A stretch of DNA of 64,000 nucleotides from Hormiphora californensis (Eukaryota; Animalia; Ctenophora). A model generated the notes under the pieces. The model saw only the letters and a program-made list of their open reading frames with translations. It was not told the origin of the DNA and searched no databases. The stretch lies in contig CM035351.1 in the NCBI GenBank assembly GCA_020137815.1, positions 7,440,001 through 7,504,000 of the forward strand, in the 5' to 3' direction. Positions within the stretch are counted from its first letter, which is position 1; each line of letters opens with the position of its first letter. Positions 8,664 through 61,700 of the stretch are shown one piece after another. A program made the translations under genes and the position numbers.

Positions 8664-12438
<3,775 letters not shown>

Positions 12439-13308
12439 CCTGGAAACAAGTGGTGTTCGAGGTTAGTGGTAGGAAAGGGTTTGGAAATGCATTGGGTATT
12501 ATTGGAGGGTTTATTAGAGTTGGTTGAATGGTGAGATGATGATGATGATGTTGACGACATTTTACAGTGATCATGTTGATGAGTAATCATAATTGGAATG
12601 GGTTAGATTATGCATTACTTTTAACTTTCAATTGAATTCACCGATTACGTCAGATCGGTTCAGTCATAGTAAATGTTACTGCGGGTGCTCTCTAAAATAT
12701 CTCTCTCTTTCTCTCTCTACTTTATGATATCTCTCTCTTTCTCTCTGTCTCTAGCTATGCTTGCTCTCCCACTACTATAGAACTGTTCTCTGTGTACATA
12801 CATTACATCATGCCGTGGCTCTCTCTCTCTCTCTCCCATTCTCTCAACTTTTGCTATCATTTTTCAGTAATTAACCACTTTTTATTAAATATGATAAAAT
12901 TTACATCAGGATATTTCGGCTACAGAGATACTTTACGTACAAGTTATACCAGGCGTCTCTATATCTCAATGTGTAACGTCATCAATTATGAACACATGTG
13001 TGTGTGTGTGTGTGTGTGTGTATATCTGTTATACAATGTGTCTCATTGTCACAGAGAGGGAAGCTCTTCAGGGCAATTATTAATTGGAACTGGTAGGGGA
13101 AACAACGAAAATAAAACCCGCATTAATTGTGAAATTGTAAAAAAATAAATGTAGCGTTTATCGTACATTATGAACTCAACAACGCAGTCTTTTAAATAAT
13201 AAACGGTGTGCCTGTCAATTGTGTAAAGGAATTGTTTTGGTAGAAAGAGGAAATAGCATGTAAAACCACGCCAGAATAATATATGATGTGCCCTCTCACA
13301 ACTCTCTA

Positions 13309-16300
13309 TCAGGAGAGATATGTGCCGATGAATTGGGCCACCCCTAAAGCAGACATTTCCATTGCAAGACCATTGTAACGTGAATCTTCGTATGGATCAG
13401 CAAACCGGAACACAGCTTTTAGAGAGAGACAGGGTGTTCCTGAGAGGGAACAAGTTCGATACAACTCCACTGTCTCCGTGTCACTTCCCAACACCCTCTG
13501 AAACAATATATTACTGGAATTAGTGACTACATTACGAAATTTAGGATTAGGGTTTAAAAGTTAATATAAGTGAAGGGGTTTCAGAATTACAATTACCTCT
13601 GGACAAAGTGCGGATCGATGGAAGGCTGTACCAGTCTCATAAGGTAGGTCTACAGGAGACACTACACCCCGTTTTAGTGTTGGAGTTAAACGGCGCTTTC
13701 TCAGCGAGACTCCATCAGTAGATAGTACTGCAGCCTGGGGAGATATTTCAAACTTTCATCAACTCCAACGTAAAACTATTTATTGAGGATGACAGTGAAC
13801 TGTATGAGTCGAGTGCTGTAAATACACATAATTTGGGTGACAAGTCCCATGTTCACAGTAAACAGTTGTAGTACATGTTAATATGGTTACATACTGGGTC
13901 CTGGGACACGCTGAGATGTTAGTAGTCATAACTTAGATAACCACTTAGATAACCAACTTAACTGACAAACCCATCTAAAGAAGTGTCTTTACCTCTAGAT
14001 TCGGATCAACTGAGACGGTATTTCTAGATTCATTATACACAAGGGCCATATTGATGTTGTGAAGACAGGGATACTGAGAATGGTAGATGGCCATATTGTG
14101 GAGAAATCCCTGGGTATCATACCCCGCACTGTGATCGTAGTCAATAGAGTTGAGGAAATCAGATTTTAGCGGCTCAACCTAGGGGGGGGGGAGTTCAATA
14201 TCAGGAACTTAGAACTGGGGGTTGAATCACTTATAATATCGCCATCCATACACCCAGTTCAACGAATAGTGCTACTACAACTAACCGACTTTATCTCCAG
14301 TATAAGTTTGGTGATCCACAACAGGACCTGTGATGCTGGGATATCCATGGGTCGGGGAAGAAGGCCAGGTAACCTCCACAATTGGGTACCCCCACTACCC
14401 TCTACCCGGGCCAGGAGATCCCGCACAGAGTCAGCCAGGGTGTAGGTTATACTACTAAAGGGTACCTCATCACACACAACCAAGTCACACAGGGACACCT
14501 GGGGGGGGGGAAGGTGGTAAAGAACAGGGAGAGTGGTTCATTGGTTAATGGAACATTTTAAGTGCACGGTGAATTTGTAACTTACCCTGCCCCTAACACC
14601 ATCACACAGTCCCGTCAGTAGAATAAGGTGGGGATTAAACCGGTTTATAGAATCCTGGAGACATTTCCCAAACTCCCTCACCGGGCTACACACAATCACA
14701 ATGGCATCGAACAGTGTCACAAAGTAAAACTGTGAATCAGGAAGTTTCCGCATGGAGCTAGTTGTCTCCCCGCCCAGAATCTTCGTTAGCCGTGCCTGGA
14801 TCAGCTCACTTTGCAGAGTGTTACCCGTTAGGACCAGGATAGTGCGGCGGTTTGTGCAGGGTTTCCGTAGGTTTGGTGGTGCTACAGCTGCTCTGGCAGA
14901 GGGACGCACCCAGTTCCCGTCCTCTTTACTCTCCTCTCTGAGCTTGGTTATCTGGTCAAGGAGGGTGGAGGACGTAGGTCGGGTATCATGGTCTAGGGAG
15001 CAGGTTATGGCAATTTCTAGGAACCGTGATGCCACCTCAACTGGCCATGGGGCTCCTTTTCTAGACACTACATCGTGGGGTTTATTAGACTTCATGTCAA
15101 TCAAACCAACTAGGGACTGGGCTTCAACTGGGACCCGTTTGGAATCAAATGCACACAGGTTGGTTAGAAGCTCCAACAGTAGCACACCATAACTGTAACA
15201 ATCAGTCTTGGTTGAAATCTGACCTCGTGCTGCCTCGGGACTTATGTAACCCATTGTGCCCTGTAACCGGTTAGTCATGACAGTTGAGTTATCACTGCCA
15301 AGGCGAGCTAACCCAAAATCTCCGATCTTCGCTTGACACTCGTTAGTAAGGAGCACATTAGCCGATTTGAGATCTCTGTGTATCAGGGGTTTGTCCGTGG
15401 CCGTGTGAAGGTAAACCAGACCCTTGGCTATATCCTCTGCAATGTGAAGTCTTGTCCCCCATGCCATGGATTGGGAGTCTGGACCTGCCAGAGCACTCGC
15501 CAGCGAGCCCTTTTCCATATAGTAGTAGACCAAACAGGGTGCCTTAGGGTCCAGGGAGTAACCGACCAATTCCAGCAGATTTGGATGCCGGTATTTAGAT
15601 AGAGCCGCAACTTCCACTGCAAATTGTTTTAAACCGACCGATCTCGCATGCATGTCGTTTTGGATGTTCAGTTTTTTAATCGCGAATGTTGTGTTTTTCA
15701 AGTTCCCCTTGTACACAGTTCCAAATGATCCCATCCCAAGTTTACAGCTGGATGTGGATTCTCTAAAGTCATTAGTCGCGTGACACACCTCTTCGTAACT
15801 AAACTCAACTAGTCCCTTGTTCCTCAACGCCAATAGTATGTCATCCGTCATCGACTCCTTGGCTGCAGTGGCAACATACGACAAGCTAATATCGTGAGAC
15901 GTTGACGGGAAATCTGGTAACTCTGGTCGACCCTGCATTATGGATCGTGTCAGACCGCTCGGTTTAGGCTGGGGAGCACGGTTTGGTGCATCCGATAGTT
16001 TTAGACTTGCCGCCAACGATTTAGACACTTGACCAGATTTCTTGAGAAAATCGAAAGCTTTCTTGTTTCTCAGTTTAAACAAAATGGTAAATAGCTCATC
16101 AACATTTGTCCCAGTCATTGAGAGGTCACTGAGGAGGGCCCTTGAGGGGCTGCCGTCCATCTGTTTTTCACACAGCCCAAACGAACATATTTGGGTGTTG
16201 GAGTAGATGCCGAGCTTTGCAGCAAGGGCTCTCCAGTTCTGATCCCCATGAGACGTGTCAAGAATTTCGCTCAGCCCGTGGACGCAGGAGTAAGGGACAT

Positions 16301-16322
16301 CACTGAGACGTTTTGGTGCCAT
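13309..16322 (-). CDS. IRAK/Pelle-like kinase: Death domain + Ser/Thr kinase + C-terminal nucleoside phosphorylase (PNP_UDP_1)-like domain; at least 5 exons
   Basis: Exon 1 16322-14586: Death domain (NWRALAAKLG...SPSRALLSDL), kinase GMGSFGTVYKG, FAIKKL, Tyr-gatekeeper CLVYYYM, HRDLKSAN, DFG, GTMGYISPE, then PHLILLTGLCDGVRGR. In-frame phase-0 exons 14498-14286 (VSLCDLVV), 14178-13993, 13734-13597, 13497-13309 (RVLGSDTET...PCLSLKAVFRFAD...SALGVAQFI). Small extra exons in 13992-13735 cannot be excluded. Confidence 0.85.
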
Positions 16323-16759
16323 CACACAGTGAACATAGCTTCTTTTATCATTTTTTCTACGGATCAAAATATAAATTAGCTCAAAGTTACAAGTTTGTTA
16401 AGAAGTTCTATTACATCAATGGCGACAGGGGTCAGGGCCAGGGAATTTCTCGCCTTCTCAAATCCCAGACTTCTTAATTCTTCAACTTGAAACAGAAAAC
16501 TTGAAAATTAATAATATTCAAACAGAACCTTTTTTCTAGAAACAACAAATTAACACCGACTACCGGGGGCTCAGGCTTCAGAATCCAGAACTCAGATTTC
16601 AGAAATGGGAACTGAAAGTTAAAACGGACAACGGTGCAGAAAGTTGGCTTTTCAATGCAGAAAGATAAGAAAGAAATTGGCAAACGTTGCTGCCCCCCGC
16701 GGGATAAGGCAGCTGCAGCACTTTTCAACGCTTTTCAAAGAGATGTAGGTCGTAGGACT

Positions 16760-18192
16760 GAAGCATTCAAGTTCGCCGACGACGGATCTGTGTTGGTTTT
16801 TGGAGACCAGACTCAATGCGAGAGAACTATGGCAATAGTTTTGGACTACATTCACAACTGGTGTCGGAAGTGGAGACTAGCGGTGAACTGTGATAGAAAT
16901 AAAACAGAGATTGTCATCATCAGACCAAGGGGTTCATCAGATGATAGTGCATCACCTCAGCAACTGAAGATTGGAAATAAAGTTGTCTCTTTTGCCAAGA
17001 ATAGTAAAGTCCTTGGGGTTTACATTGATAGTAACCTAAATTTCATGACTCATGCTGCTGATGTACTGAAAAGATGCTGGTTTAACTGGAACACATTAAC
17101 CTCAATGACTGGTCGACTGACAGGGATTAACAGTTCGGGGCTTTCGCTACTATTCAGAACAGTAATCTTGACAAAGATCCTTTATGCAGCACCAGTTTGG
17201 TTAAGACAGCGAACGGACTTCTTCGGAGATCTTCTTTCCCGAGCACGGCTGAAGATAACAGGGGGACAAGTTCACATAGCCAAACCTCTGTCAGAACTCC
17301 TAGCATGCGTGCCTCCTATTGACGTTCTTGTGGAAACAGTGGTAACCAAATTTGTCCTAAAAGGCCTTGCAGCTAAAGATAATATATCAGCTAAACTACT
17401 ACAAATTGAAGCGGAACAAAATCATGTGTTCTTCTGGCAGATTGCTGCTACCAAAAGATATTTGGTTTGGAAGTCGACTCAACTAGACGGTGTCCAGATC
17501 CAGGATTCTAACAGAGATTCAATCAGAACTATTAACTTGGGAAGTTTAGAGCCGGACACTTTCCTGTACTCAAAAGAGGAAATGAGACAGTGCACATGTA
17601 GTTTATGGGACCGGTCACTCAAATCATCGATTAACCATTTGACTCGAGATGACCCTTTCAGCATACTTCCTATTCACTCTCAAGAAGAACTCGCCAACCT
17701 TATCAACTCAGAGGCCACTTTGGATTTCCCCATAATTCCAAGAAACATGTCCCGACAGAACTCATCTCAGGTCTTAGACTTTGTACATGGCAGATCCTTA
17801 CGTTTTCAAGACTTCAGCTTCAGTTACCTGAGATACGAGCGATCACTTACAGTTCCCAACTGTCTTGAATGTGGCCAACTCCCAGATTCAACATTCCACA
17901 AGTTGTTTGAATGTTCTGCGATAAAAGATGTGGAAGGGCCCCGTGAGGAACTAAGGGTGATATCTTCTTATGAAATGAACTTCCATCTTCCACTAATTTT
18001 CTCCAAAGACAAGCAGGTAAAATCGAACTTTAGAAAGCTAGTAAGAGCTGTAATAGAACAATCTTTATTTGGGGATCAACTGCTTGTGTAATGGGTTTAT
18101 ATTCTAATCAATTGTAAATGTATAACTGACCAGCCCGAGACGTACACACTGTGTACGAATCGCACTCCACGGAGTGAATTTTTAACTAACTT
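16760..18192 (+). mobile_element. 5'-truncated non-LTR retrotransposon (RT C-terminal half plus CCHC zinc knuckle)
   Basis: Begins at RT motif AFKFADDG; WCRKWRLAVNCDRNKTE, KVLGVYIDSNLNF, ILYAAPVW, CLECGQLPDSTFHKLFEC; stop at 18091; 3' hairpins CGTACACACTGTGTACG and CACTCCACGGAGTG; short TAAC tail. ORF-track residues before ~16760 are non-element sequence. Confidence 0.85.
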
Positions 18193-18934: not shown

Positions 18935-18991
18935 GTCTATGACCTCGAATTAGCCAATGTGTTTTAGTATGGCATACTAAGAGCACGGAAC

Positions 18992-20554
18992 ATGGCCACA
19001 CTACCCCCACCCAGTCCGAAGTCCCCCATCCCATTCTCCAATATCGCAAGTGAGGGGGTACTGATAAACAATAACGACATCGACCTTAAGCTCATCCAAG
19101 GATTGTCGGAACTGTCCCTAGCCCAGCTAGACAGACTGGTTGAACACCTCAACGTCGAATTATCCAGAAGAGTACCAGACTGCACCACAGCTGAGGATCC
19201 TAACCGGTATGTGGAGGTAGTCGAGGATTATGTGGGCGAAGATGACCTCAACTTGCTACATGGTGAGGTCATGGATTTAACAGAGAAAAACACTTGGGTA
19301 ACGTCCACAGGAATGCCCTATAGTTGGTTCAGTAAACGGGGACAACAGCTCGCTGAACATAAGTTGACCCCAGTCGCCCTTGAGGAATTCCCCGTTGTAG
19401 AGCGGATCATGAACACTATGAACACTATGCAAGGATGGAGACTAAATTCGTGTCTGGTCACAAGATACGACACGGGTGTCGGTGTGGGTTATCACAACGA
19501 TTTTGAGGTGACGATGGATAAGTCCTCCCCGATTGTTGTGTTAACTGTCGGAGCGCCGGGTAAAGTGGATTTCTTACCCTACAAAGCAGATGGAAGGACC
19601 ACGCCAGCTCTCACCCTGGAACTGATTGCTGGTTCCGCCTACGTCATGCACCCAGGATGTCAGGAGGTCCTGAAGCACCGGGCGGTCAAGAACGAGTCTA
19701 CTGAGAAGCGGTATGCTCTGTCCTTCAGAAGAGCAACCCCACAGCTCCCCTCAACAGATCTGGTACCACCACCACCACCACCTAGCCCACGGAGACTGCC
19801 CTCCCCACCATCGAGGGCAACAATAGGAGTCCAGCATTCCCCTCCTCCTCCTAATGGGGATGGTTACCAACCGGATCCTCCTCCTCCTCCCCCAGTGGCG
19901 AACGTGCCGGTACCCTCCGTTAGACCACCCCTACTTCCTACCCCTTCTGGAGTGGTCCCTTCTTTGAGACATGCCGTCAACCCTAGGAGCCCCACTACTC
20001 TGCTCTTGGGCACGAGCCTGTCCAAATGGGTACCTGAGATCCGGGGGCTTGAGAATATCTCTGTGTCGGGTGCAAGGATTGTGAAGCCCCATTCGAAATG
20101 GAAGGGTACTACAGCGTTTGAAGAGCTGTCCAGGTACCACCAGAGCCACCCTGAGGCACACTTTGAGAAGGTTGTTATCTGCTATGGTACGAACGATATT
20201 AGGTTTGATAAGAACTTCTGTGAGAACAGCGCAACGAAGAACCGACTCCAAGGGGCACTATGCCACCTAGTGAGGCAGATTAGACGGTTGTATGGGGACC
20301 CGGAGATAGTGATTACACATGTCCTTCCCCTGAGAGGAGACTTCTCATATACGGTCTCTAATGTTACCATGTACAACAAAATTGTAAATTGTGTGTCCCA
20401 ACTCATGAATTGCAGTTTTGTGAGTTGGATGGCTGATTTCCTAACGCGTGATTTGTTTTTCAACTCATCACTTTATTGTAGGGATGGTGTGCATTTGAAT
20501 AAATATGGTTACTCGGTCTTAACTGACCTGATTTATAACGAAGTTTTACGCTGA
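18992..20554 (+). CDS. LINE ORF1: AlkB-like 2OG-Fe(II) dioxygenase + Pro-rich linker + SGNH/GDSL esterase
   Basis: LNSCLVTRY...GYHND (HxD)...GSAYVM...LKHRA (H)...RYALSFR (RxxxxxR). SGNH blocks: LLLGTSL, SVSGA, CYGTND, DGVHLN. Confidence 0.88.
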   Translation: MATLPPPSPKSPIPFSNIASEGVLINNNDIDLKLIQGLSELSLAQLDRLVEHLNVELSRRVPDCTTAEDPNRYVEVVEDYVGEDDLNLLHGEVMDLTEKNTWVTSTGMPYSWFSKRGQQLAEHKLTPVALEEFPVVERIMNTMNTMQGWRLNSCLVTRYDTGVGVGYHNDFEVTMDKSSPIVVLTVGAPGKVDFLPYKADGRTTPALTLELIAGSAYVMHPGCQEVLKHRAVKNESTEKRYALSFRRATPQLPSTDLVPPPPPPSPRRLPSPPSRATIGVQHSPPPPNGDGYQPDPPPPPPVANVPVPSVRPPLLPTPSGVVPSLRHAVNPRSPTTLLLGTSLSKWVPEIRGLENISVSGARIVKPHSKWKGTTAFEELSRYHQSHPEAHFEKVVICYGTNDIRFDKNFCENSATKNRLQGALCHLVRQIRRLYGDPEIVITHVLPLRGDFSYTVSNVTMYNKIVNCVSQLMNCSFVSWMADFLTRDLFFNSSLYCRDGVHLNKYGYSVLTDLIYNEVLR

Positions 20555-20672
20555 TTGCTGATTTTGCTGCATTGATAATATATATGTTTGGGGGGAGAAG
20601 TTGTTTTATTACCCCAACCAACAGACCCTCCGTGAACCCTTAGTGCCGAAACCAAAATCCAAAACCCCCACA

Positions 20673-23600
20673 ATGATAAGTGCTGAACAGTACAGACAAA
20701 CTATTGGGAGGTTTGCAGGGGGGAGGGGTGGAAAAAGAAAAATGTTTACTAACAAAACCCTTGACCGACAGTACAGACAAACATCATCAATATCACCATT
20801 TCATTTGATTCTCTACCTAAGTTACAGTATACTAATACTTATTCTTTTAGGCTCTATGTCCAGATGTACTTCCTCTCTGTCCTGTAGAGAACTATGTATG
20901 GAAACAGGCCGAGAAGAAGTCGGTAAGAGTATCAACCAGCATTACATTTGGTATGCTAATTGTGTGTTAACCCTGGTGATATTCAAAAGTATGGGGAAAA
21001 TAGGGAACACCTGTTCCAAAATCATAGTTAGGTGTCGACTAGTCGTACTATTAATCTTTCTTTCGAGTCTAGCAAAAGCACTTATTGTTATCCACCAGCC
21101 CAGTATTGTAAATCCTGGGCCTACTGAACCAAAAACAAAAATTAGTGTGGTGTACTGCAACGTTAATGGTCTCATAAATATGCAATCAATTAGTGGTGAT
21201 CAGCCCCAGTTTCAAGTATCTAAACTCTCTGATCTCCGAGCATACTTGTTTACTTATGAGCCAGAAATTGTAGTATTAAATGAAACGTGGTTGAACAAGC
21301 ATGTCAATGATGGGGAATTAGTGTCCGATCAGTTCTATACAATATACAGAAAAGATAGAACTAAAAGGGACATGGAAATGTATGATAAAAAGGGTGGGGG
21401 AGGAGTTATGATTCTATGTAAGAATAACATGGGTATTGAAGTTGATCAGGTAAAGGACAAGGTAAATCTGCCTATTGTCACCATACTGCTCAAGTCAAAA
21501 AACCTGACCCCGATATGTATCTCAACATTCTACAGGTATGACTACTCGGGGTCAGATTGTCTTGAAGAAACTGAGCGGTACTACACACGCCTATCTAGAA
21601 AATATAAAAACCTAGCAATCATCGGGGATCTCAATCTAAGTTCGGTTAAAGATTGGGATGACCCAGTATCGAGCAATAGTATACACGAAGGCTTTGCTCA
21701 CCTTTTTACATCTCTGGGTATGAGTTCGTTAATAAACGCACCTACACACAGGGATGGAAATATATTAGATCTAATTCTCACAAATAATAGTTCGTGTTTT
21801 TCCAATGTATCGGTAGAAGAAAATTGTTTAGTCAAATCTGACCACTTCACTATTAAATGTGAGGTGCAAATCAAAAAGATAAGACCCAAGTTTAAGACGG
21901 CTAAAAAGTTTTCTTACAAGAAAGCTGATTGGGATGCGATTAATGAGGGACTGATTCGGTATGACTGGACTAAGGAATTCAAACACCTCAGGGCCGAGCA
22001 ATCTCTTCAGAAATTTAAATCAAAATTAGATATTACCCTAAGACACCATGTACCATTAGTTAATGTAAAAATAGGATCTCAACCACCCTGGTACGATGAT
22101 GAGTTGAGACAGTTAAAAAGGTCAATGGATAATTCTAGAAAAGCTTCTCTGAAGTTTCCAAATGATGTTTCCCTAAAAAATGTATTTACTTGTATGGAGG
22201 CAGAGTACAGAAAAGCGTCAAGGGAGAAAGAAACACACTTTCTAGAACTCTCCTCCATTGATGAGTCTGCCTCTACAGCTGCAATTTCCAAAAAGTTTTT
22301 TAAACATGTGAAATCAAAAACTAGCAGCACTAGAGTCCCTGATATAGTTCATTACGAGGATAACTCTGAAAAAAGTAGTCAACAAAAATGCAAAATGTTT
22401 AATGATTTTTTTTGTAAACAGTTCACACAAGCCAGTACGTATAGCACACCAATTGATTTTGATAGAAACCACGATAATGATTTTAACAACGAAACTTTTC
22501 ACTTTGATGAAGTTGTAGATATATTAAGAAAATTAGATGCATCCAAGGCCACTGGCCCAGATAATATAGACGGTATAGTTTTGAAAAAATGTCACAAATC
22601 ATTGGCATATCCACTAGTATTAATTTTTAACAAAGTTTTTGATGAAGGGTCTATTCCAACTGAGTGGAAAAATGCAAATGTTGTGCCAGTCCACAAAAAA
22701 GGAGATAAGTCTAATGTAGAGAATTATAGACCGATTTCTCTTACGTGTCTAATTATGAAGGTCTTCGAAAAGTTGGTTAGAGAGCGCCTGTATAGGGCTT
22801 GTCTGGAGAAAGTTACACCTCATCAGCATGGGTTCGTACCACTGAAGTCATGTACGACCCAACTGATCGAGTTTAACTGTGAGCTAGCAATAAATTTAAA
22901 CCAACACTTGCAAACAGATATTATATATTTTGATTTTCAAAAGGCTTTTGACAGCGTATCACACGATGTCATACTTGAAAAACTTAAAGTCCAGTATAAC
23001 ATAAACGGTAAAATGTTGCAATTTCTTAAAGCGTACTTATCTGGACGTCGACAGAGAGTAGCATTAGATGGTGAATTCTCGGAATGGTCTAATGTTAAGA
23101 GTGGAGTCCCTCAAGGATCCATCCTCGGTCCATTCCTTTTTGTTCTATTTATAAATGATATAGTTGAGGCCATTGGGGATGAAGGAGAAACCAATATAAA
23201 GCTATATGCAGATGATCTAAAAATCTGGAGGACGATTAAGAATGAAAATGATAGTCTCCAGCCTGATATTGATAGATTGATTGAGTGGAGTGTGAAAAAT
23301 AAAATGAAGTTCCACCCTAATAAATGTAAACTTCTTAGATGTACCTTGAAGCATAAGCCTGTTAACCTAAAATATTACTTAGGAAGTAGTGAGATTCAAC
23401 AATGTACAAATGAAACTGACCTGGGGGTGATCACCAATAGAAAATTATCGCCTCTAGAACACCAAAACATGATAATTTCTAAAACGTCTCAGAGGTTAGG
23501 CCTAGTCAAGAGAACTAGTGCTCTGGTTGATTCCCCTCTAAAGAGGAGAACACTTTATGTCAGTCTTGTTAGTTCGTTGTTTGAACACTGCAGCCAGATA

Positions 23601-24065
23601 TGGCGACCAGTTTCAGCCTCTAGTATTGAAAAGTTCGAAAAGCTCCAAAAACGTGCATTAAAATGGATAAATAATGAAATGGAGCTCAGCTATGATTGGA
23701 AAACGTATGTCAGTAAACTTAAACAAAGAAAGATTCTTCCTATTACCGAAAGGTTCCTTTATAATGACTTAAAACTGTTTCATAAGATATTCTACGGATC
23801 TTCATCCCTAAAACTTCCAATGTTCCTTCACAAATACATCCCTGACAGACACGACAGGCGTACAACTAGACAACAGACAAACCGGGACCAAACAGACATC
23901 ATTTGCACACATAACCCTAATATTGACGCTTTTAAACATAGTTATTTTTACCGTATCCATGTGGAATGGAATAACCTTCCGCATGACCTACGATGCCTAG
24001 ATTCTCATGATGCCTTTGTGGCCAAGCTCAAAGATTATCTCTGGAATAACATTCCAAATTCGTAA
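20673..24065 (+). CDS. LINE ORF2: hydrophobic leader ending in NPGP + APE endonuclease + reverse transcriptase
   Basis: First ATG at 20673 (MISAEQYRQTIGRF); YCNVNGL, LNETWL, IIGDLN, LDLILT, SDHF (APE); NYRPISLT, QHGF, DFQKAFDSV, GVPQGSILGP, LYADD (RT). Confidence 0.95.
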   Translation: MISAEQYRQTIGRFAGGRGGKRKMFTNKTLDRQYRQTSSISPFHLILYLSYSILILILLGSMSRCTSSLSCRELCMETGREEVGKSINQHYIWYANCVLTLVIFKSMGKIGNTCSKIIVRCRLVVLLIFLSSLAKALIVIHQPSIVNPGPTEPKTKISVVYCNVNGLINMQSISGDQPQFQVSKLSDLRAYLFTYEPEIVVLNETWLNKHVNDGELVSDQFYTIYRKDRTKRDMEMYDKKGGGGVMILCKNNMGIEVDQVKDKVNLPIVTILLKSKNLTPICISTFYRYDYSGSDCLEETERYYTRLSRKYKNLAIIGDLNLSSVKDWDDPVSSNSIHEGFAHLFTSLGMSSLINAPTHRDGNILDLILTNNSSCFSNVSVEENCLVKSDHFTIKCEVQIKKIRPKFKTAKKFSYKKADWDAINEGLIRYDWTKEFKHLRAEQSLQKFKSKLDITLRHHVPLVNVKIGSQPPWYDDELRQLKRSMDNSRKASLKFPNDVSLKNVFTCMEAEYRKASREKETHFLELSSIDESASTAAISKKFFKHVKSKTSSTRVPDIVHYEDNSEKSSQQKCKMFNDFFCKQFTQASTYSTPIDFDRNHDNDFNNETFHFDEVVDILRKLDASKATGPDNIDGIVLKKCHKSLAYPLVLIFNKVFDEGSIPTEWKNANVVPVHKKGDKSNVENYRPISLTCLIMKVFEKLVRERLYRACLEKVTPHQHGFVPLKSCTTQLIEFNCELAINLNQHLQTDIIYFDFQKAFDSVSHDVILEKLKVQYNINGKMLQFLKAYLSGRRQRVALDGEFSEWSNVKSGVPQGSILGPFLFVLFINDIVEAIGDEGETNIKLYADDLKIWRTIKNENDSLQPDIDRLIEWSVKNKMKFHPNKCKLLRCTLKHKPVNLKYYLGSSEIQQCTNETDLGVITNRKLSPLEHQNMIISKTSQRLGLVKRTSALVDSPLKRRTLYVSLVSSLFEHCSQIWRPVSASSIEKFEKLQKRALKWINNEMELSYDWKTYVSKLKQRKILPITERFLYNDLKLFHKIFYGSSSLKLPMFLHKYIPDRHDRRTTRQQTNRDQTDIICTHNPNIDAFKHSYFYRIHVEWNNLPHDLRCLDSHDAFVAKLKDYLWNNIPNS

Positions 24066-55729: not shown

Positions 55730-58700
55730 TCACTGCTGTTTGCATTCGTCCTCTTTTTGTTTGGTAGATTTCTTAGTGAGGGCAACTCGTTTAGCGAGGA
55801 GGGGCTGCTTCGTCACGGAGGCTATTGAGGCCGAGGGGCCTGCAGGCGGCTCTGCTGGTGTCTGAAGCGGGATTAGAAATTAGAAAAACGGGCAAACTGG
55901 TAGAATTAAAATAATGACATTGAGAAAAGCAACTGTGGTTTAGCATTATTTTCCAACCTGTGGTTTAGGGTCGATGTTTTCAGATGAAGGTGGTGAGATG
56001 GTGCGGGTACTAGATTTCTCCTGGACTCCACGTTTTTCCGAAGGGACACTCGGAACAGCAAATCTCTCTGCTGCAGCTTGTTGCCTAGTTGAGGAGGGAT
56101 CGAGGACACGAGCGGTGGCTGCATCTCTCTTTTTATCACACTGTCTACACACCAGCCCTACTCCTTGATAGGTCAGCTTGATCCTGGGGGAAGGAATTAG
56201 GAATTAGGAGGGAATTATAAATTAGGATCAGGGAATAATGGCTGGAGCGAATTTATAGGAGGGAGGAAAATGGAAATTACATACGCTCCCCACAACTCAC
56301 TTTTCCAGGTAATCAGCGTGGTCGTTATCCAGACTTTTCACAAACTCCTCCAGGCTAACAGGCTGATAGGTTCGTGGGGTAACATAGGCAAGCTGCTCCA
56401 CATATTTCCTCCTTATAATCTCCCTCTCCAGAGACTTTGTGGTTTGGGTGACCTTGTTGACAGCGGTGTTGAACTTACTCTCAAGACTATCTGCCTCGTT
56501 CAATGCGTCCTGCCACTGTTTGTGGAGTGTGATGTACTCCGCGTTGTGTTTCGCCTGGGGGCAGGATACAAGGTTATGGTTTGAAAACATGGATCTACCC
56601 CCCCCCCACATTGCATCCCAACTAACCCTATTTCCAATTTGGTATCGAATACACCTCAACCTTCGGGGGCGCTGGCAAGGGGTAAGTTCGTAACCAAATT
56701 TCCAATTACTGTATCACACTACTTTCTAAATTACAACCCCTGAATTTACCACCCCTGCATTTACCATGTATCCCTCCCCGCTCTCTACTCACCAAACCTC
56801 CCCAACTCCCCCAATCCGCACCCAGTTGTCCCCCTCCCCGCTCTCTACTCACCATCGTATTGTTTTGTTCCTTGATCTCCTCGTCTTGTTTGTTCATCTT
56901 GTTGACAACAATCTGATGTTTCTCCTTGAACTGGCTGATGTCCTCTCTAGCTGTCTCCATCATCTCCTTCCCCATCTCCAACTGTTTCTCCAGGGTTACC
57001 AACTTCTCGTTCATTGCCATATTTTCAACCTGCAACTCCCGGTATTCCAAATCTATTGTTTTCCGGGAATCCTGTGCTTCCGCCAGGGCGTCTTCGTGGA
57101 ACTGTCGGAACTTCCCGAAATCCTGTTCTATCTCGGCCTTGGCGGTGTCTGCCTCGTCCTTCTTCAGTTGCAGAGTTTGCATGTTAGCGGATAGTTGACG
57201 GTGAGCTGTGGCTAACATCTCATATCGATTTGCCTTGTCCTGAAGTTCGTCCACCCTCGATTTCAGGGCATCCCTATCAGATATCATATCACTACCACTA
57301 GTCCTCCAGTTCTCTAACTCCGCAACCGCCTCATCCCGTTCACGTTCCCTCAATGCTAATCGCTCCTCTACTTCAGCCAACTGTCTGACATTCTTGGCAA
57401 ACTCGCACGTAACCGACTCCCTGGATCGCTCAATATCTGCTGAGAGTTTATCCATTTGTTCGGTTACCATGGCAACCTTTGCAGACTCCTCTTCCTTCTC
57501 TCGGACAAGCTGTTCAGTTCGCTCGGTAAGGGAGATAACCCGGGCAGTGAGATCTTGGCACTGCTGTTCCCGCTCCACCACTGCATCAGACAGGGTCTCC
57601 ATCTCACTGACCATAGTGGTCAGCTTGGACCGGGCCTCTGATATATCCGAAACAAGGACTTCCTTTTCCTTTTGGATTGCTGCCAGATATTCCTTGGTAG
57701 AATGAAGTTCCTGTTCTAGTTCCCTCATTGCTCCCTGCGTGGTGTTCTGAGATGCAGAGATCTGGTTTTGTAGCTCCTCTTTCTCAGCCCCCAATCCCTC
57801 CACCACTCCTTGAATCTGCTCCATTTCAGTCATTAGTCGCTCCATAGCTCCTTGAATCTGCTCCTTTTCAGTCACTATCTGATCTCGGATGCCACATGAT
57901 TCAGTTAGTTGCATCTTCAGCTCATCCCTTTCTTCAACTAGTTGCTCCTTCTGGCTAGCCATCTCTGATAATTGTGTCTTCATACCCTCGTACTCTGTGG
58001 AAGTCTGATCGATTTGTCCGACCAACATTCGCATCTCGGTTTCCATTTGCTCCAGTCGAGCGGCTCCTTCAGCAATAACCAACCTCTGTTCTTCTAGCTC
58101 CTTATCCTTCTCTGTCACCTGCTCCTGACTAGCAACAAGAGCTTCCTCCTTCTCCCTCACCAACTCTCCTAATTTCCCTGAATCCTCTTCCTCCCGGGCC
58201 TTTGTCTCCCGTTCCTTCCTCTGCAACAGAGTCATTAGCTCATCCAAATCATCACGCAGCGCCTCCTTCGCCTTACCCTCCGCAATCAACTTCCCAGAAA
58301 CATCGTCTAGTTTTGCCTGTAGAGCAGTCACGGCGCCCTCCATTTCTAGCACCTGACCTGACTTTTCCTCCAGGGCGGATTCAAGGGAAGTGATACATTG
58401 AAGCTGTGCAGCCACCTTCATCTGGTAATCACTGTTGCTCTGTTCTAACAACATCTTCTCCTCTAGCATCTGGAACTCATCCACCTCCTTTGTCCTGTAT
58501 TCCGCGACTACCCTCTGTAGGGATTGTGCCTCAGCAGCGTGCTCCCCCATCTCAGCCCGGAGGGTTTGTTCCTGTTTCCTCAGAGTTGCTATGGTAACCT
58601 CCAACTGGGCTACAGTTTGGTCGTCTACAGCAGGTGGTGATGACTCCAGGGTTTCGAGTTCTTCTTTGACTGCAGAGATCTTACCCTCCAATTCAACGCA

Positions 58701-61700
58701 TTTGAGACATTCTCTCTCCTGGGATAGAGACGAGATTTGAACCTCGAGTTCCGGGCATTTTGGACAATCCTGGGATAGAGCTGAAATCTGGGCTTCCAAC
58801 TGGGGACATTTGGGGCACTCAGCAGATTGTAGGGATGACAGTTCTTGTGATAGAGATGACACCGTCTCCTGAAGGGCCGGACATTGGTTGCAGTCGGGCG
58901 GTGGTGTGGCGTGGGCTTCAGCTAATGCGTGGGTGAGAGAACCGACTTGAACCCCCAACTCAGCACACTTCATACACTCGGCAGGCGGTTGGGCAGTTCT
59001 GAGAGCATCCAGTTCTTGAGATATACTGGCAATAAGTTCAGCTGATTCAGGACATTTTAAACATTCTGGGAGTGGGGAGGATTTAACTGCATCTAACTCT
59101 TGACAGGCAGCAGAGACCTGGGCAGCGAGTTCGGGACACTTTGTGCATTCTGGGAGTGGAGAGGATTTGACTGCATCTAACTCTTGACAGGCAGCAGAGA
59201 CCTGGGCAGCGAGTTCGGGACACTTTGTACATTCTGGGGTTGGAGAGGATTTAACTGCATCTAACTCTTGACAGGCAGCAGAGACCTGGGCAGCGAGTTC
59301 GGGACACTTTGTACATTCTGGGAGTGGAGAGGATTTGACTGCATCTAACTCTTGACAGGCAGCAGAGACCTGGGCAGCGAGGTCGGGACATTTTGTACAT
59401 TCTGGGGTTGGGGAGGATTTAACTGCATCTAACTCTTGACAGACTTCAGAGACCTGGGCAGCGAGTTCGGGACATTTTGTACATTCTGGGAGTGGGGAGG
59501 ATTTAACTGCATCTAACTCTTGACAGACAGCAGAGACCTGGGCAGCGAGTTCGGGACACTTTGTGCACTCAGTTGATTTGAGAGTGTCTAATTCTTGGGA
59601 AAGAGTAGAGATTTGTGCCAACAGTTCAGGACAATTATTACATTGAGCTGGTGGAGAATCTTGGAGGTTCGCCAGCTGTTGGGAGACATCGCCAATCTGA
59701 GCTTCTAATTCCGGACATTTCATACACTCAGGAACAATGTTGGGAGTAGATTTAAGAGTTTCTAGCTCCTGAGACACGACAGAGATCTGGGCTTGGAGTT
59801 TGGGACATTTAGAACACTGTGAAGATGTCTGCTGGATGTTCGCCATTTCATGTGACATGGCCTCTATCTGGGCGGTTAGTTGAGGACACTCTGTACAGGG
59901 TGGTGCAGTCCGGAGTGCCTCTTTCTCCACTATCATGGCCTCTATCTGGGCCTTTAGTTCGGGACACTCTGTACAGGATGCAGTCCGGAGTGCCTCCTTC
60001 TCTTCCTCCAGCAGTGAGATTCTCTGGGAGAGTGTTGATGATATCTCCAGCTTCTCATTAGACAGCTCAGTGTACCTCCGTGACAGGTCGGCACTATTCT
60101 TAGTGAGCTGCTCAAACCGGAGACTGTAGTCAACACTTGCTAACTGAAGGTGCATCATCTTGTCCTCAGCCTCGTTTAACTCCATGGTTTTGGTTTCCAG
60201 CTGCACGCTCTTCTCCTCCCACTGTAGAGCTCTGTCCACTACCTGCTCCAGTGGGAGATGTTGGACTCGTGCCAGAAGATCCTCGGAAGATGACAATTGA
60301 GCCTGGAGATCGGTTATTTGTTGTGTAAGGGTGGCGTTCTCCGTCACATGTCCCGCAATCTTTCTTTCCAATTCTTGAATTTGCTGAATCAAGTTCTCCT
60401 GTTGTTCAGAGGATGGGGAGTTGTTGAATTCCTCTCCTCTCCTCTGCAGGCTCTCTATCTCTGCCATTATCCGCTGCCTCTCAACATCAAACTCACTGCT
60501 AACAACAGCCAGCTTGTTCTGTGCCTCTGTGATCTGGACATTTGCCAGCTCCAGTTCTCCCCTGAACTTCTCCTGAAGATCCTCCATCGCTGAATCCTTG
60601 GCACTCAAAACTTCTTCCTGAAGTCTGTCACATCTTTCTAGGACAGCCCTCAGTTCTTCATCTTTCTGTCCCAGATCCTGTTGGTATTTGAGGAGTGCTT
60701 CAGATAACTCTCTCCTAGAATCTTCCAATAACTTTTCAAGCTCAACACGAGTAGACTGTATTTCATCCCTATCTCTTACAGCAGCCTCCAGGTTTAGTGT
60801 TAACTCCTGTACAGCAGTGCTTCTCTCACCCTCCAGTTCATTGCGGAGGGTTTTTAAGGATTTCTGATGCTCTTGATCCATCTTTCCAATCTCTGATTTT
60901 AGTGTAGCAACCTGAGAATAAGCACATGCAAGCTCGTGTTCCTTCTGTTCTGTTATCTCTGTTGTCCTTTGAGTGTTTGAATCCTCTACAGTTTCCATGT
61001 CTACTGCTCCAGAATTTTCTAGCTGTTCGATTTTAGAATTCAGTTCTGTGTTCTGTTCAGTTAACTGCTTCATATGCTCTTTTAATTTCGTCATTTGAGC
61101 AATAGCATCTTCATGGGCAGTCTTCACCTGTCCAAGAGATGATTCGTGAACAGCAATGACAGCCTGGGCTTCTTTAAGTGCCTCCTCGAGCTCTCTAGTC
61201 CTGATCTCAGATTCCTCTTGCAGTGCTCCACTCTCCTCTACTGCCCGCTGCTGCATCACCGAGAACTCTTGGTTCTTCCTCTCAGCAGCTTCTTCTAGAC
61301 TCTGTACAGTTTCCTGTAGTGATGCTATCCTCCCCTCAAGATCACCCCATTCCTCCTCAGATCTCTGACCCGATTTGGCAGTCTCCAGAGATTTCTCTAG
61401 CTCACTAATCTGGTGCTCAGCCTCAGTTTTAGTGCACTTCAAAGTTTCGGATAGACGCGTGATTTCGTGTGATTTGGCCTCAACCTCTGCTTTCAAGTTC
61501 TCGAAATCTTCTGGAGTGAGTGTATCGCTGGTACTGTCCGTCTTCCGTTTTTTACTCTGAAATAGAAAGGGGTTACCAGACGTGAATGTCAATTCAAAAG
61601 AAGCAACTTCATAGAAAGTTTATACTTCAATGAGCGGAACAGAGACAGAAAGACAGATAAGCAACTGTCGGTGCAACTTACGGGACTGGAAAAGGGAGAA

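Follow-up and report, generated by a model that had tools for sequence, protein, structure and literature searches.

Described proteins that couple a signaling module to a nucleoside phosphorylase (PNP) domain come from both bacteria and early-branching animals. Death-PNP proteins are known from the sponge Amphimedon (PMC3879445), where the protein DDAN is reported to be an active ATP nucleosidase (bioRxiv 2023.01.24.525353), and PNP effectors occur in bacterial systems with Death-like and TRADD-N domains (PMC8195603, the available text of which has no occurrence of IRAK, Pelle or ctenophore). Here we analyze a 64,000-nucleotide stretch of the genome of the ctenophore Hormiphora californensis (contig CM035351.1, positions 7,440,001 to 7,504,000; hereafter the window, whose own numbering is used throughout), in which one spliced gene on the minus strand (16322–13309) encodes a Death domain, an IRAK-family kinase and a C-terminal PNP-like domain that very probably has lost its canonical enzymatic activity.

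The protein resembles each of the closest described systems in part. Like IRAK4, it has an N-terminal Death domain and a kinase with the gatekeeper Tyr, HRD and DFG motifs, and IRAK4 structures are the best Protein Data Bank (PDB) matches; human IRAK4 (460 residues), however, ends after the kinase, whereas the ctenophore protein continues into an extra PNP-fold domain of ~330 residues. With Cap17 and with DtcC of the Detocs system the domain shares its fold and the motifs GxCxGxRG-x-LxDL and Kx(V/I)xxFxD-xx-DxxY, and defense profiles match it best, but its catalytic Glu and Asp columns are replaced and ~80 extra residues are inserted. In Detocs, too, a kinase is coupled to a PNP domain, although there a histidine kinase works with a receiver-PNP protein and here a Ser/Thr kinase sits in the same chain. 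DDAN, which could be compared by its description only, is likewise a protein of an early-branching animal with a Death domain and, at its C-terminus, a PNP domain, but is described without a kinase and as active; no named sponge protein was present among the matches checked by name. MTAN and other NP-I enzymes are the best structural matches (Z 20–23), yet their sequence match is low (PDB profile E 0.019) and the ctenophore domain is without their catalytic residues. Finally, the cereal proteins WTK4, RWT4 and Pm4 offer an analogy only: they too fuse an IRAK/Pelle-related kinase to an extra non-kinase domain, but they are race-specific, variable plant proteins, unlike a conserved animal gene with Death and putative pseudo-PNP domains. 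The ctenophore protein thus belongs to the IRAK family as well as to the NP-I fold superfamily, and should not be classified with the Cap17/DtcC ATP nucleosidases.

The fusion had been flagged as possibly undescribed in an initial annotation of the window, and we likewise found no description of an IRAK-PNP fusion in full-text searches of the literature, although Table S6 of Rousset et al. or Traylor-Knowles et al. 2019 might list the protein. Ctenophore IRAK homologs are mentioned in a review (PMC11359984) and in PMC12849515, in the available text of each without a PNP domain.

Gene structure and transcript evidence

A splice-signal exon model of the minus strand yields five exons encoding an 820-residue protein, separated by four phase 0 introns (87, 107, 258 and 99 nt) that are all of the GT-AG type. 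Exon 1 (14586–16322; residues 1–579), defined by its reading frame and the exon model, runs from the ATG through the Death domain, a linker and the kinase to the first ~88 residues of the PNP-like domain, and is part of a 619-codon open reading frame (ORF; 14538–16397) that has no stops and holds both kinase and linker. Exon 2 (14286–14498; residues 580–650), which RNA contigs join across introns 1 and 2, encodes the LCDLVV strand and the start of a helical insert. The insert continues through exon 3 (13993–14178; residues 651–712), a placement drawn from the RNA contigs and a model of the insert, and ends in exon 4 (13597–13734; residues 713–758), which also encodes the strand and loop that line the base pocket in MTAN, with P743 at the MTAN Phe151 position. 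Exon 5 (13309–13497; residues 759–820 and the stop codon) carries the DTE motif, T765 at Met173, E766 at Glu174, K785, R789 at Asp197, and D792; both of these last exons are defined by RNA contigs and alignment. The initial annotation had placed the feature at 13309–14860. The PNP-like exons do lie there, and the peptides it quoted all occur on the minus strand in the stated order, but the gene starts outside that interval, at 16322, and the PNP-like domain begins at about 14849, inside exon 1.

The exon joining, for which RNA had been proposed as the check, is confirmed by marine RNA contigs, which show gaps of exactly 87, 107, 258 and 99 nt at all four predicted introns. These contigs come from seven runs, six of them with real cover, in three studies; the seventh, run X7, gave repeat matches only. 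Intron 1 is supported by two runs from two studies, intron 2 by three runs from three studies, intron 3 by two runs from one study, and intron 4 by three runs from one study. One contig crosses introns 2–4, another crosses introns 1–2 and a third reaches 14749, so that the overlapping contigs form a chain from 13342 to 14749 (about residue 525 to the end of the protein). Within exon 1, cover extends over 14584–14749, 14955–15096 and 15206–15539, with the pieces of the kinase covered separately.

One observation weighs against a single Death-kinase-PNP protein: in the seven runs no RNA contig of this species bridges the linker between kinase and PNP-like domain (14750–14954). The Death domain also has no contig cover in these runs, and in neither place does the gap itself prove anything. 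The linker stretch contains three GT donor-like hexamers and no AATAAA or ATTAAA; it lies inside the frame of exon 1 and is kept within a single protein in the full-length orthologs. A wrong joining of two neighboring genes is ruled out, as the kinase and the start of the PNP-like domain share a stop-free exon and the orthologs agree, and contamination by a bacterial gene is ruled out because the gene has four spliced introns. The Death, kinase and PNP-like domains are encoded by one spliced gene.

Six of the seven differences between RNA contigs and the coding sequence are synonymous, including four of five within the PNP-like domain, although the contigs are thin and errors are possible. Just past the stop codon (13286–13304), the contigs differ from the window by C>T at 13299 and by small insertions at 13301–13302, which represent variation in the 3′ untranslated region.

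Death domain and kinase

The Death domain (residues ~17–94; 16041–16274) scores 23.4 bits against a Pfam Death cut-off of 22.6 (E 6.8e-5), and three of four full-length orthologs also exceed the cut-off, with P0012 below it at 20.2 bits. In the PDB it finds weak matches to the death domains of MALT1, IRAK3 and p105 (E 0.014–0.052).

The kinase (residues ~193–455; 14958–15746) is a strong Pfam Pkinase match (E 5.5e-41). Among 57 PDB sequences at E<=1e-30, the first 26 are IRAK4 (best 1.5e-52), followed by plant receptor kinases (7e-46) and IRAK1 (5.2e-34). The initial annotation of an IRAK/Pelle kinase with a Death domain is therefore correct as to the family, but by best-match ranks the kinase is IRAK4-like and not Pelle/IRAK1-like. 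Its CLVYYYM segment aligns with CLVYVYM of IRAK4, placing Y266 at the Tyr position that we take to be the IRAK4 gatekeeper. K216, E237, HRD (315–317) and DFG (335–337) are intact here and in all 22 kinase-bearing ctenophore-type proteins, many of them redundant, and the domain looks like an active kinase of the IRAK4 type. In the window protein and four orthologs Pfam finds Death and Pkinase domains, and neither a receiver nor a histidine-kinase domain.

Fold and kinship of the C-terminal domain

The C-terminal domain begins at about residue 492, and its N-terminal part (residues 492–579; 14586–14849) carries Gln504 (14813–14811) at the MTAN Glu12 position and the motif GLCDGVRG. Pfam PNP_UDP_1 matches all three orthologous tails searched (best E 5.2e-6), at scores that fall short of the PF01048 gathering cut-off of 25.1 bits (22.8 bits for P0012 and 12.8 bits for the Mnemiopsis domain), and single exons of the window give no PF01048 match. 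These sub-threshold scores explain why the domain goes unnoticed in standard annotation.

An AlphaFold2 model of the Mnemiopsis tail, calculated from a 57-row alignment that included bacterial PNPs, has a predicted local distance difference test (pLDDT) score of 90.5 and a predicted TM (pTM) score of 0.87. Compared with 48,161 chains, the model is most similar to MTAN (4l0m; Z 22.9, root-mean-square deviation 2.9 Å, 203 residues aligned), and Foldseek returns uridine phosphorylase and MTAN (E 5e-11). Two features of this model count against it as a test of the fold: it was built on the Mnemiopsis domain and not on the window's own, and the bacterial PNPs in the alignment steer its fold. A search of the ESM Atlas, for which we supplied no alignment, gives PNP_UDP_1 clusters as 28 of 30 matches. 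The nucleoside-phosphorylase-like domain first proposed from motif order is thus borne out in the orthologous model, and the domain almost certainly has an NP-I (MTAN-type) fold and PNP ancestry.

A profile search of 1.84 billion representative sequences returned 79 matches. Fourteen, at E<=1e-10, appear from their identity to be ctenophore-type pieces; 65 are weaker, of which all except P0061 (a ctenophore-type exon-5 piece) were scanned for domains. PNP_UDP_1 was present in 60 of these 64 and, among the families listed, a receiver domain in 25, with EAD1, EAD7, TIR, STAND NTPase or TPR domains in others; no protein kinase was among the families listed (the top five families for three of the proteins). 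The nearest non-ctenophore relatives are thus mostly of the defense type, namely receiver-PNP, PNP-EAD, PNP-TIR and PNP-STAND. PADLOC profiles agree, as the candidate defense model PDC-M60C (E 1.1e-11) and a CBASS PN-superfamily effector (E 9e-8) both match better than the best housekeeping NCBIfam model (E 2e-5). Because of these architectures and profiles, the domain is placed, as far as sequence comparison goes, with defense-type rather than housekeeping PNPs, in line with the Cap17/Detocs-like kinship suggested initially.

A fusion to housekeeping MTAN, DeoD or Udp was considered and is ruled out; these have the lowest of 63 pairwise scores, the others having been preselected by similarity. 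E. coli MTAN scores z 3.1 against the window domain, compared with z 21 for the best non-ctenophore relative. A quick IQ-TREE analysis (64 rows, 205 columns; Cap17, DtcC and DDAN not among the rows) groups the five ctenophore sequences with a support of 100 on a long branch, within an open fork that also contains E. coli MTAN. As a control for chance, a profile made from non-ctenophore sequences, themselves found with the ctenophore profile and so not fully independent, gives E 1.7e-12 for the exon 5 frame of the window and E 4.7e-5 for the last part of exon 1, while the next best of 1219 six-frame ORFs has E 0.92. The same kind of profile search of six-frame ORFs finds no second PNP copy in the 64-kb window.

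The active site

We aligned five ctenophore tails with 56 of the 64 non-ctenophore matches and with E. coli MTAN, DeoD and Udp; the eight matches left out were five truncated sequences, P0055, P0066 and P0086. In MTAN, we take Glu12 to be the general base, Asp197 the general acid and Glu174 a ribose-binding residue, with the Glu174 and Arg193 positions presumably on the ribose side of the pocket. The Glu12 column is Gln in four ctenophores and His in the fifth (Q504 in the window protein), whereas 51 of 53 relatives have Glu. The Asp197 column is Arg in one ctenophore (R789 in the window protein) and Gly in three, the fifth being truncated, against Asp in all 53 relatives. Met173, invariant in the 53 relatives, is replaced by Thr (T765 in the window protein), by Val in three and by Ser. 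Phe151 has become Pro, Gly78 has become Asp, His or Asn, and the ASG motif is lost. A wider, redundant set of ctenophore-type fragments and proteins gives the same picture, with Gln in 21 and His in one of 22 at the Glu12 column and Gly in 11 of 11 at the Asp197 column. The initial annotation had read EME to DTE and SDYAD to FRFAD as marks of an altered or inactive, possibly nucleotide-sensing, domain; the site is indeed altered and probably inactive, but the E-to-D change at the first EME position is by itself normal for the family (26 of 53 relatives), and the telling losses are those of Glu12, Met173 and Asp197. Because the catalytic Glu and Asp columns are replaced, the domain is very probably a conserved pseudo-nucleosidase without canonical nucleosidase activity.

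Several observations pull the other way. The pocket partly survives, with Glu174 kept in four of five ctenophores, Lys at the Arg193 position in five of five and Asp200 in four of four; Lys is also the usual residue there in the family (50 of 53 relatives). In the divergent ortholog P0035, a Glu stands immediately before the Glu12 column. Finally, Cap17 D472 and DtcC D353 lie 34 and 33 residues from the C-terminus, between the medians of 35 for the lost Asp and 32 for the kept one three residues further on (n = 26), a distance compatible with either. A single Asp-to-Ala substitution in the predicted catalytic site abolishes defense by Cap17 and DtcC (bioRxiv 2023.01.24.525353), and the substituted residues may correspond to the Asp197 column. 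As direct support for the residue roles assumed above for MTAN, PDB titles include substrate complexes of Asp197Asn and D198N variants.

The alignment is read most simply as that of a pseudoenzyme with a remodeled base (adenine) pocket and a partly kept ribose side. With the adenine-contacting positions changed and the ribose subsite partly retained, sensing of a nucleotide by the tail is conceivable but unsupported. The pocket also varies among ctenophores, with R or G at position 197, N in place of Glu174 in P0035, and EPD in place of EME in P0061.

Orthologs and conservation

A search with residues 440–579 recovered six proteins from 213 candidates, every one with a kinase. Orthologs exist in other ctenophores, with full-length proteins in Bolinopsis microptera (XP_063674818.1, 851 residues, named IRAK4-like in RefSeq) and Mnemiopsis leidyi (KAL5255562.1, 850 residues, named hypothetical), each ~60% identical to the window protein overall and 55–57% in the tail. 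A further ortholog of 843 residues is encoded on a 2905-nt Logan contig, the length of which fits a spliced transcript, and another of 789 residues is more divergent and without the last ~45 residues. The fusion is apparently conserved across ctenophores. Two scans of metagenome contigs, with 268 and 51 pattern matches and none confirmed, did not find orthologous loci.

Identity to the window protein is 70–71% in the kinase, 58–60% in the Death region, 47–57% in the tail (P0008 55%, P0012 47%, P0013 57%, P0014 57%) and 10–21% in the linker between kinase and PNP-like domain. Across five proteins, invariant columns make up 54% of the kinase, 37% of the Death domain, 36% and 31% of the two halves of the PNP core, 23% of the insert and 3% of the linker. 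Judged by the tail identity, these invariant columns and the mostly synonymous RNA-contig differences, the tail is under constraint comparable to that on the Death domain.

One match, P0055, is a 716-residue repetitive protein with no PNP match in Pfam, whose C-terminal 33 residues (640–672) match the ctenophore tail (E 1.2e-5); it is perhaps a mis-called fragment of a further ortholog.

The helical insert and unusual relatives

The ctenophore domains have 136–144 residues in the segment bounded by MTAN positions 100 and 143, compared with ~60–65 in most relatives and 43 in MTAN. A long insert (134–154 residues) is also present in twelve other rows of the alignment, comprising nine bacterial-type sequences, two JGI metagenome proteins (P0064 and P0059) and Polysphondylium violaceum KAF2075153.1. 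A model of a 93-residue stretch of the P0035 insert from a 24-row alignment is of middling quality (pLDDT 66.5, pTM 0.52), and no fold match was found with it (Foldseek best E 8.3, best Z 3.7, ESM Atlas best 0.88). The bacterial relative P0066 has a Pfam wHTH-PRTase_assc match (E 0.0034), and Z-alpha-PNP proteins are described by Rousset et al. (bioRxiv 2023.01.24.525353), hints at a possible winged-helix or Z-alpha identity for the insert that the middling model and its searches neither bear out nor refute.

The Polysphondylium protein (P0104) is the best non-ctenophore pairwise match to the window domain, at the z of 21 given above, and shares with the ctenophore insert a 38-residue motif (E 4e-6 among 59 sequences; next best 0.032). 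The residues of the Asp197 and Met173 columns are missing from this protein as well. By eye, it has a Cys/His-rich, RING/B-box-like N-terminus, a PNP-like domain (residues 245–580) and a P-loop-like C-terminus; Pfam gives no PNP match, and a search for relatives of its domain returned only itself among 1790 candidates. P0064 and P0059 combine a PNP domain with the long insert and an intact Asp197 column, and P0064 also shows a weak Death-like match at its N-terminus (E 0.062); both are possible active relatives of the ctenophore domain.

Neighborhood of the gene

A 491-codon open frame (16616–18091, plus strand) begins about 300 bp upstream of the kinase start codon and runs in the opposite orientation. 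By eye it is the 3′ part of a reverse-transcriptase ORF from a non-long-terminal-repeat element, with a FADD motif and a Cys/His knuckle; it has no Pfam match and does not match ORF2 of a nearby long interspersed nuclear element (LINE). This LINE-type element (18968–24062, plus strand) is apparently intact, with a 528-residue ORF1 containing AlkB-like 2OG-Fe(II) oxygenase (E 4.7e-14) and SGNH/GDSL esterase (E 4.3e-10) domains, followed by a 1167-residue ORF2 with endonuclease and reverse transcriptase. The downstream neighbor (~8800–12440, minus strand) is a spliced M16 peptidase (Pfam E 3.5e-12), by its motifs presumably the beta subunit of the mitochondrial processing peptidase, with a long GA microsatellite and a 20-bp tandem repeat in its introns. 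At 56709–61619 (minus strand) there is a single open frame of 1637 codons that is coiled-coil-like, with a weak KASH_CCD match (E 0.0069).

Proposed function of the fusion

MTAN-family enzymes dimerize, and IRAK4 trans-autophosphorylates. We propose that the Death domain, as it does in other IRAKs, would bring the protein to a Death-domain adaptor acting upstream, and that the kinase would signal while the pseudo-nucleosidase tail would no longer cleave ATP. The tail would most likely act instead as an interaction module, for instance self-associating like MTAN-family enzymes to hold kinase domains together for trans-autophosphorylation, or it could dock the kinase or a partner through the ~80-residue helical insert. 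From the kinship of its domains, the pathway would be innate-immune. We see an even chance that the tail is mainly a scaffold or allosteric module for the kinase with no need of a ligand, which makes this the best-supported of the explanations considered here.

The partly retained ribose side of the pocket raises a second explanation, that the tail is a metabolite sensor in which the kinase is switched when the dead nucleosidase takes up a ribosyl metabolite, such as a nucleotide, an NAD+ product made by a TIR domain, or ribose-triphosphate from an active ATP nucleosidase. Mnemiopsis is described as having expanded TIR2 proteins and no canonical Toll-like receptor (TLR) or clear MyD88, its one TIR2+Death protein not grouping with MyD88 (PMC11797021), so an alternative input to an IRAK is plausible, and Glu174 and the Lys at Arg193 are the positions such a ligand could use. 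The base side, however, is changed at Asp197, Met173, Phe151, Gly78 and the ASG motif, and pocket residues differ between ctenophores, which is unusual for a conserved ligand site. We therefore regard sensing as rather unlikely. A bolder form is a long shot: ctenophores, the sister group of all other animals, would have turned an ATP nucleosidase of the bacterial-defense type into a second-messenger receptor on IRAK4, and a danger signal derived from nucleotides (a TIR-made NAD+ product, or ribose-triphosphate from an active PNP effector) would bind the dead domain and activate the kinase, replacing or gating Myddosome assembly.

It is also conceivable that the domain is still an enzyme with changed chemistry or substrate, which the kinase would phosphorylate and unleash in an animal parallel to Detocs. 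Consistent with this, its nearest profiles are those of the PDC-M60C and CBASS PN-superfamily effectors, receiver-PNP proteins make up 25 of the 64 non-ctenophore matches scanned, the Asp200, Glu174 and Lys193 positions are retained, and the sponge Death-PNP protein is an active ATP nucleosidase (bioRxiv 2023.01.24.525353). Both near-invariant acids are nevertheless gone in every ctenophore sequence that covers those sites, and the Polysphondylium relative has lost the same Asp column, so that dead versions recur; continued catalysis is improbable.

Loss of catalysis with retention of the fold would suit an integrated decoy, in which a dead PNP mimics active PNP effectors, traps pathogen inhibitors and so activates the kinase. 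Cereal kinase-fusion resistance proteins provide a precedent (bioRxiv 2025.08.26.672365), and plant receptor-like kinases are the next-best PDB matches after IRAK4. Conservation near that of the Death domain and mostly synonymous RNA-contig differences are, however, unlike a fast-evolving bait, and neither a second PNP copy in the window nor a named ctenophore active PNP among the 79 matches (most of them without names) was found, leaving this explanation with little probability. Least likely, and very improbable, is that an old fusion is kept for stability or a developmental IRAK function with no signaling role for the tail: we found no immune-induction data, and the main text of PMC11797021 has no occurrence of IRAK, PNP or phosphorylase and its readable supplement (54,331 characters) none of IRAK or PNP, but ~330 residues are kept at 47–57% identity beside a linker at 10–21%.

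IRAK4 is at the core of Toll/IL-1 signaling, and ctenophores would have to drive it without canonical TLRs or MyD88. The fusion gives a concrete, testable handle on ctenophore IRAK4 signaling, and it adds to the story of Cap17 and Detocs, which concerns active effectors, a domain that animals probably reuse for regulation. If the tail is a plain scaffold, the fusion would be a lineage-specific curiosity; if it is a metabolite sensor, it would be a new input to an IRAK.

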